NCBI GenBank assembly: GCA_050249535.1
Contig: JBFWQI010000001.1
Coordinates: 149,541-213,540, forward strand
DNA length: 64,000 nucleotides
Source: Blastocatellales bacterium
Lineage (GTDB): Bacteria; Acidobacteriota; Blastocatellia; RBC074
Direction: 5' to 3'
A program made the translations under genes and the position numbers. Position 1 is the first letter of the stretch, and each line of letters starts with the position of its first letter. The notes beneath the pieces were generated by a model that worked only from the letters and a program-made list of their open reading frames with translations, searched no databases and had not been told where the DNA came from. Of this stretch, positions 32,185-32,526 are shown in pieces.

Positions 32185-32526
32185 GTAGAAAGTAAAAAGT
32201 AGAAAGTAGAAAGTAGAAAGGATGATCGAGATTACAAGACTCGTCGGTTTCGATCATTCTTTCTACTTTTTACTTGTAACTGCTCAGCCCTCGGAGGAAA
32301 GAAGAAATTAGACAGGATTTACAGGATTTGACAGGATTTACAGGATTAAGTCAGAGGGTATTCAGGACCGTTTTCTCTGGCAAATGTGCTTCGATTTATA
32401 TTCGAGCTCATTTTATCCTTGGATTTAATCCTGTAAATCCTGTCAAATCCTGTAAATCCTGTCCAATTTTCTTTTCCCTCTGTTGGCTGAGTAGTTACTT
32501 TTACTTTCTACTTTCTACTTTCTACT
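32185..32526. repeat. (AGTAGAAAGT)n hairpin repeat whose right arm is interrupted by MITE copy B.
   Basis: The left arm at 32185-32220 is agtagaaagtaaaaagtagaaagtagaaagtagaaag. The loop is palindromic (tgatcgag...tcgatca). The right arm is split between 32258-32275 and 32499-32526 by the MITE. Confidence 0.55.
32276..32498. mobile_element. MITE-like element, copy B (223 bp), flanked by a perfect 8-bp target-site duplication, TTTTACTT.
   Basis: The termini are gtaactgctcagccctcggaggaaagaagaaattagacaggatttacaggatttgacaggatttacaggattaa on the left and its near-perfect reverse complement on the right. The direct repeat ttttactt lies at 32268-32275 and 32499-32506. Confidence 0.6.

Follow-up and report, generated by a model that had tools for sequence, protein, structure and literature searches.

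Between lctP and its convergent neighbor, a contig of a Blastocatellales bacterium (Acidobacteriota; assembly GCA_050249535.1, contig JBFWQI010000001.1) carries a long hairpin with arms of short tandem repeats, and one of these arms is split by a block of 223 bp. What is the block, how did it come to lie in the hairpin, and was the hairpin as such its target? We considered these questions in a window of 64,000 nucleotides (the whole stretch of DNA that was analyzed, positions 149,541 to 213,540 of the forward strand), and in further contig and related sequences. The evidence favors a MITE of 223 bp with 14-bp TIRs and an 8-bp duplication, recently inserted into an older, position-conserved AGTAGAA hairpin, a reading to which we assign a probability of about 85%.

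The interrupted hairpin

The hairpin separates two convergent genes, stop codon from stop codon, and its lctP-side arm is interrupted by the 223-bp block. On the plus strand, a conserved hypothetical gene (31057-32181; 347 amino acids in the public annotation), which is syntenic in relatives and has no match in Pfam or NCBIfam, ends with a TGA stop codon (32179-32181), and the left arm of the hairpin starts 3 nt past it. This arm (32184-32221) consists of five heptamers (32184-32218), AGTAGAA throughout except for the variant AGTAAAA in second place, followed by AGG. It leads into an inner palindrome specific to this locus (32222-32257), in which ATGATCGA (32222-32229) and TCGATCAT (32250-32257) enclose a 20-nt loop. 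The proximal part of the right arm (32258-32275, TCTTTCTACTTTTTACTT) ends with the octamer TTTTACTT (32268-32275). Beyond the block, the distal part (32499-32527) resumes with TTTTACTTTCTACTTTCTACTTTCTACTT, of which the first 8 nt (32499-32506) are again TTTTACTT. The last heptamer of the distal part contains the stop codon (TAG, minus strand, 32522-32524) of lctP (32522-34165, minus strand), the gene for an L-lactate permease (PF02652), which is convergent with the gene at 31138/31057-32181.

An earlier note on this DNA had interpreted the region as a repeat hairpin into which a MITE-like element had inserted, and both the layout and the coordinates that it gave are borne out. Its notation for the hairpin, “(AGTAGAAAGT)n”, implies a repeat unit of 10 nt and has to be corrected, since Tandem Repeats Finder reports a period of 7 with AGTAGAA as the unit. 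The 14-mer AGTAGAAAGTAGAA occurs 20 times when up to one mismatch is allowed, against an expectation of 0.01.

The octamer as a target-site duplication

The presence of the same octamer on both sides of the block, here called copy B, would be of little interest if it followed from the repetitive nature of the arm. However, in an array of period 7, the 8 nt on one side of a given point equal the 8 nt on the other side only in a homopolymer, and an 8-bp repeat flanking the block therefore needs a duplication. The octamer, found exactly where the earlier note had placed it, is thus a genuine target-site duplication and not an effect of the period. That note had also said what would speak against a duplication, namely repeat periodicity as the sole explanation, with duplications lacking at other copies; the mini-element described below has a perfect 8-bp duplication, and it lies in non-repetitive sequence. 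Altogether, the family presents two perfect 8-bp duplications (TTTTACTT and TTTTATCC) and one that agrees in 6/8 positions (copy A).

The arm before the insertion can be restored in silico, and the result matches the intact hairpins elsewhere in the window. When copy B is taken out and one octamer is left in place, the arm is identical to 12602-12639 in 38 of 38 positions and to 38434-38464 in 31 of 31. When the block alone is taken out and both octamers are kept, one aberrant unit of 8 nt remains in the arm. The restored hairpin of 113 nt pairs from end to end, with a predicted energy of -67.6 kcal/mol (z -12.9), and in this it resembles the intact hairpins, for which the values are -59.6 to -61.3 and -32 to -33 kcal/mol.

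Empty sites and the age of the insertion

Contig JBFXDQ010000002.1 of a Blastocatellales MAG (GCA_050180995.1) includes the window. Natural empty sites are found at the orthologous lctP 3' end, in related strains as well as in related species. Five Logan contigs from five runs (SRR22401990, SRR21101784-6 and SRR30202055), which represent one strain with an lctP that is 97.0% identical at the nucleotide level, have the hairpin intact and without the 223-bp block; in this strain, the lctP stop leads straight into AAAGTAAAAAGTAGAAAGGATGATCGA...ATCGATCAACCTTTCTACTTTTTACTTTCTAC, and the inner palindrome is the same as in the window. In a closer relative, L130, with 93.6% nucleotide identity of lctP, the hairpin is uninterrupted at the same site. 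Two more distant relatives, L123 and L124, with LctP proteins of about 85% identity, have lctP and the same neighbor in convergent orientation, with an uninterrupted and well-folding hairpin in between. A contig from SRR27751816 with an lctP that is 100% identical at the nucleotide level ends where the block begins, and shows the junction of the occupied allele (...GTAAAAG). The empty sites in relatives indicate that the hairpin is old and the block a recent gain, and the existence of a conspecific strain without copy B indicates that its insertion is recent.

Could the direction of change have been the opposite one, with an ancestral block that was precisely deleted between the octamers in the relatives, and no insertion at all? 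Deletion between 8-bp direct repeats that flank a long palindrome is mechanistically easy, and the block has been seen in a single lineage. However, four separate lineages, the two most distant ones among them, are without the block, so that several independent precise deletions would be needed. Moreover, the same element is present at an unrelated locus with different flanks, and an arrangement with a single octamer is what the intact hairpins at 12541 and 38402 show. An ancestral block is therefore extremely improbable in our judgment, and we retain the recent insertion of copy B.

At the lctP 3' ends of L130 (4169-4250) and L124 (4146-4262), AGTATAA and AGTACAA units take the place of AGTAGAA in both arms of the hairpin.

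A family of elements with GTAAC ends

Copy B (32276-32498, plus strand) is a non-coding element of 223 bp with TIRs and flanking octamers. Its 14-bp TIRs, GTAACTGCTCAGCC at 32276-32289 and GGCTGAGTAGTTAC at 32485-32498, agree in 13/14 positions when read in the same direction (GTAACTGCTCAGCC / GTAACTACTCAGCC); they begin with GTAAC and follow the end pattern GTAACTRCYCAGC. The element is palindromic over almost its full length; of its subterminal arms, the left one is rich in purines and the right one in pyrimidines. A 9/19-nt repeat, ACAGGATTT, forms inverted arrays at 32307-32348 and 32427-32467, which leave a unique core of about 78 nt (32349-32426) between them. As DNA, copy B is predicted to fold into one long hairpin (-72.9 kcal/mol, z -17.4). 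The sole frame that is open along the whole element gives a translation of 73 amino acids, for which no homologue was found among 5.8 billion proteins. Several features by which MITEs are recognized, a length below about 500 bp, the lack of coding sequence, TIRs, a duplication of fixed length and insertion polymorphism, are present.

Two full copies and one mini-copy make up the family in the window. Copy A (2377-2657, plus strand; 281 bp including a nested insert) lies about 20 nt upstream of an ATG (2355), with a minus-strand gene on either side, and is about 79% identical to copy B overall once the insert is removed. Its flanks, TCTCTTGT and TCACCTGT, agree in 6/8 positions, and the chance probability of at least this agreement is about 0.004 by binomial calculation. 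All other runs that contain the gene adjoining it carry copy A together with the insert, and none offered an empty site. The same nested arrangement is seen in three other sequencing runs (L253-L255). Over 74 nt, the left end of copy B and the reverse complement of the right end of copy A are 100% identical, yet the cores of the two copies (about 80 nt) align in direct orientation. One of the copies thus has its core flipped relative to its ends, as is expected of recombination between long inverted arms.

The nested insert is itself a member of the family, a mini-element of 66 bp (2504-2569, plus strand) with the TIRs GTAACTGCTCAGCC / GGCTGTGCAGTTAC. On either side of it stands TTTTATCC (2496-2503 and 2570-2577), a perfect 8-bp duplication, and copy B, which holds a single TTTTATCC at 32411-32418, provides the corresponding empty site. 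The mini-element and copy B share nothing except their ends, which implies that the ends are what the transposition machinery needs. All six ends, those of copy A, copy B and the mini-element, start with GTAAC. Chance does not account for their number: the TIR 14-mer occurs 5 times in the window with up to 2 mismatches (0.2 expected), and a 22-nt element end occurs 2 times (0.00 expected).

Searches further afield gave little. Neither the window nor 17 kb of extra flank contained another TIR match or a transposase with matching ends, and the further contig beyond the window ends, in which two more heptamer hairpins were found, had no MITE in these 17 kb. The gapped pattern of the MITE ends had 0 matches in JGI metagenomes and the TIR pattern had 0 matches in viral contigs, and in a BLAST search of plasmids with the MITE as query, the matches were confined to the 9-mer arms, at two unannotated places. 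A Dehalococcoidia MAG (CBDCVB010000001.1; L014 1500-1613) has a 114-bp element with TIRs of about 25 bp, GTAACTGTTCA..TTGAGGGGACC, and with flanks that agree in 7/8 positions over 8 bp. The related ends of this element suggest, at the sequence level, that ends of the GTAAC type are not confined to the genome studied here.

Sequence or hairpin as the target

Both perfect duplications begin with TTTTA, and this common start favors a preference for a short sequence over recognition of the hairpin. Copy B landed in the variant heptamer (TTTTTAC), which is the supplier of TTTTA in the hairpin; the flanks of copy A do not start with this motif. In the 64 kb of the window, which has 58.6% G+C, TTTTA occurs 45 times on both strands together, that is, at 0.07% of the positions, and 7 of the 45 occurrences are inside AGTAGAA hairpins.

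The alternative is that the hairpins are the specific target, with a transposase that recognizes the palindromic repeat in the manner in which IS1397 and ISKpn1 recognize REP/BIME units. REPs and BIMEs are intergenic palindromes at gene ends, with units that contain GTAG, and IS1397, ISKpn1 and ISPpu9/10 insert in REPs. The hairpins studied here are also gene-end palindromes with GTAG, and one of them has an IS-type element inside. They differ from REPs in their tandem-repeat arms, and the insertion differs in being a single event in the stem, whereas the elements that target REPs consistently choose the loop. One of the three insertions in the window is in a hairpin, while hairpins make up less than 1% of the window by a wide margin, and the insertion point is the variant heptamer that is common to all hairpin copies. 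However, the other two insertions are outside heptamer hairpins, and four of the five AGTAGAA hairpins in about 81 kb are empty. The target of the mini-element, TTTTATCC, has only the TTTTA start in common with TTTTACTT, which again points to a short sequence preference, and a sample of three insertions is too small for a meaningful test of enrichment. Recognition of the hairpin as such is therefore unlikely, and we favor a preference for a TTTTA-containing sequence. The view of the earlier note that AT-rich hairpins are preferred landing sites, which goes back to one event, is not supported by these counts.

The 9-mer arms of the MITE

The subterminal part of the MITE has a much wider distribution than its ends. 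The 18-mer GACAGGATTTACAGGRTT is found in at least 120 loci, in which the 9-mer arms (GACAGGATT TACAGGATT ...) recur almost verbatim, and these loci belong to Acidobacteriota, Verrucomicrobiota, Chloroflexota, Bacteroidales, Desulfobacterales, Kiritimatiellia and the archaeon Methanoperedens. An inverted partner, and hence a hairpin, is present in 76 of the 120 listed loci, usually in the form of tandem NACAGGATT 9-mers just after stop codons. GTAAC ends were adjacent to the ACAGGATT motif in 0 of the 120 listed loci. From these sequences, the MITE looks like a GTAAC-ended shell that carries one 9-mer hairpin module. It resembles other bacterial MITEs in its small size, non-coding nature, TIRs, fixed-length duplication, presence in several copies, strain polymorphism and nesting, and differs from them in that few copies are seen and that it carries as passenger a hairpin module of 9-mer repeats, which elsewhere is common in the absence of such ends.

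Some of the loci have GxxExxY genes (TIGR04256 / PF13366, PD-(D/E)XK fold) between ACAGGATT arms or hairpins (L038 2167-2632, L064 2165-2629, L078 1835-2236 and L099 1964-2389), a sample of four that is biased because the motif was the basis of its selection. The arrangement looks like an ORF in a stem, and in L038 and L064 the reading frame continues into the arm (...NPVNPV). The arms that bracket the GxxExxY genes recall the ORF-in-a-stem organization of 23S rRNA intervening sequences. Searches of Rfam and of the literature returned no family and no paper that describes the arrangement of a 9-mer hairpin with GxxExxY, and a literature search for the repeat sequences themselves found no paper. 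In the Bacteroidales MAG GMC9 (L005, L031, L035, L045, L081 and L095), another multi-copy element, with the ends GGCTACACGTATAGTATTGGACA ... TGTCCAAC..GGGTAGCC, carries GACAGGATTTACAGGATT inside. Two other readings of ACAGGATT were considered and rejected. As a CsrA sponge, the motif would have its GGA paired; as a DnaA box, it would be a poor match; and it also occurs in archaea.

Was it then the ACAGGATT-armed hairpin module that moved, by homing or recombination linked to the PD-(D/E)XK (GxxExxY) genes, with the GTAAC ends as bystanders? The spread of the arm 18-mer over many phyla and into archaea, its frequent occurrence in hairpins, and the GxxExxY genes located exactly between or beside the arms in the four loci would fit. 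But the mini-element is without any ACAGGATT repeat although its ends are the same and its 8-bp duplication is perfect, none of the listed foreign loci has a GTAAC TIR next to the motif, and the boundaries of both perfect insertion events are the GTAAC/GTTAC ends. We consider it very unlikely that the module was the mobile unit, and regard the GTAAC-ended element as the unit that inserted.

A broader idea is that the passenger module, NACAGGATT 9-mer arms after a purine-rich stretch, represents an undescribed family of selfish elements that crosses phyla and domains. The empty hairpins would be its non-autonomous members, of which the MITE captured one, and something similar would hold for the AGTAGAA hairpins, where close relatives differ in the heptamer type of both arms. 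We put this forward as a tentative and rather doubtful proposal.

Mechanism and the transposase

TIRs and a fixed duplication of 8 bp point to transposition of the cut or copy kind by a DDE enzyme that acts in trans. The gene for the enzyme that moved copy B would lie elsewhere in the genome, and the enzyme would most likely be of the IS66 type. Ends of about 14-25 bp would suffice for movement, as the mini-element, which shares only the ends, has also transposed with an 8-bp duplication. The choice of target would follow AT-rich sequence that contains TTTTA, not the hairpin as such.

IS66 family elements generate 8-bp direct repeats (PMC11946415). Their inverted repeats start with GTAAGCG or GTAACCG (PMC11946415, PMC12888890), and the quoted ends include GTAAGCGTCC... 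and GTAACCGTCCGGGCA (PMC12888890). The ends of the family described here also begin with GTAA, and a comparison of GTAACCGTCCGGGCA with GTAACTGCTCAGCC by hand gives 9/15 matches, the agreement being weak beyond the first five bases. IS66 has been described mostly from Proteobacteria, and no tnpA/tnpB/tnpC genes with these ends were found in the window and its 17 kb of flank. Since no transposase with matching ends is encoded there, the assignment of the family is a guess, and an IS66-type enzyme as the source is best taken as a lead suggested by the ends.

What became of the interrupted hairpin? Owing to the near-perfect palindrome of the MITE, the interrupted region would still close: the predicted fold, on both strands, is a three-way junction with the outer heptamer stem kept. 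Tolerance of the insertion may be due to this closure.

Heptamer hairpins at gene ends

Five AGTAGAA hairpins occur in about 81 kb of contig, and each of them begins at a stop codon or no more than 4 nt from one. Intact examples in the window are those at 12541-12640, between the EF-G gene (TAG at 12543-12545, in the first heptamer) and relA/spoT (ATG at 12674), and at 38402-38464, in the interval that separates the gnd stop (38468-38470) from the zwf start (38387) on the minus strand. In three cases, lctP, EF-G and the cytochrome c gene upstream of ccoN (L251 4312-4314), an in-frame TAG stop is inside the first heptamer. As 7 is not a multiple of 3, heptamer arrays place TAG in all three frames and on both strands. 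The settings include convergent genes, the EF-G/relA-spoT interval, and positions inside the gnd-zwf and cytochrome c-ccoN-ccoO clusters, with the next RBS directly after the hairpin. The AGTAGAA family is also present in a relative, at three gene ends and with 3 to 14 units per arm. More generally, (AGTAGAA)n arrays are found in at least 120 metagenome contigs that range from 23 to 68% G+C; 6 of the 120 among those listed are hairpins, and most are one-armed.

The folds of the hairpins have z values from -7 to -14. At the lctP site, the sequences indicate that the hairpin structure is kept while the heptamer sequence turns over. A scan for consensus terminators called no site at the hairpin, the stems of which are A+T-rich and the 3' arm of which is itself U-rich; the reading as an intrinsic terminator, with a G+C-rich stem and a T run, was thus not confirmed. 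Rfam had no match in the window at the gathering threshold, and in 32100-32600 only sub-threshold matches to generic long hairpins (miRNA precursors) were obtained. The location of hairpins inside apparent operons (ccoN-ccoO and gnd-zwf) argues against strong termination. Judged by position and predicted folding, the odds are about even that the hairpin acts as a stem-loop at RNA 3' ends, be it as a stabilizer, a weak terminator or a processing site.

The closest likeness is to the STRR sequences of cyanobacteria, tandem 7-bp intergenic repeats that are able to form hairpins and for which roles in transcript stability, translational coupling or termination have been suggested (PMC2670836). The heptamer arrays share with them the tandem 7-bp units, the intergenic location and the potential to form hairpins between or after genes. 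STRR sequences are a feature of filamentous, heterocyst-forming cyanobacteria, however, whereas the host here is a Blastocatellales MAG and the heptamer is AGTAGAA, so that the arrays are of the same kind without being members; they also differ in that they form paired inverted arms that start at a stop codon. Heptamer hairpins are probably lineage-wide gene-end stem-loops of the STRR/REP kind, with a likely part in RNA 3'-end protection or termination.

Other tandem-repeat hairpins were encountered on the way. In the window, 9950-10073 is a hairpin with 12-mer tandem arms (GCATGGAGTCCC; -71.5 kcal/mol), and 63105-63201 is one with 7-mer ATTTCCC/ATTTGTC arms (-42 kcal/mol on the plus strand, -37 on the minus strand). 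A degenerate and G+C-richer heptamer hairpin at 36727-36850, between zwf and the GDE gene, has an AGTAGAA hairpin as its counterpart in a relative. In a metagenome contig (L177 856-1233), successive tRNA genes are set apart by heptamer hairpins, and in another (L168, about 5900-6700) a small gene that by eye resembles a four-helix bundle of the 23S IVS type is bracketed by inverted heptamer arrays (GTTAATT.../...GATAACC). Elsewhere in the window, a cluster of nSTAND1, CHAT, SIR2_2, TIR_2 and WD40 genes at about 51700-59000 (L251 14027-21374) looks like defence or signalling NTPases, and 48683-49543 and 57011-57871 are repeats that are 72-75% identical at a spacing of 8328 bp.

Implications

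The nested insertion itself is an ordinary case of a repeat in a repeat, and both partners are of known kinds. Its value lies in the documentation, as an exact duplication, an exact in silico restoration and natural empty sites come together in one example of a MITE, and this in an uncultured soil acidobacterium, from a poorly studied phylum and a lineage without a cultured representative. For annotation, the family can be defined by its ends, the length of its duplication and its likely TTTTA target. The gene-end heptamer hairpins, which are old, conserved in position and fast-evolving, are a more interesting object than the MITE. Hairpins with tandem-repeat arms, of 7-mers and of 9-mers, recur at gene ends far beyond this genome, and those of the 9-mer kind are found almost verbatim across phyla and bracket GxxExxY genes of the nuclease fold.
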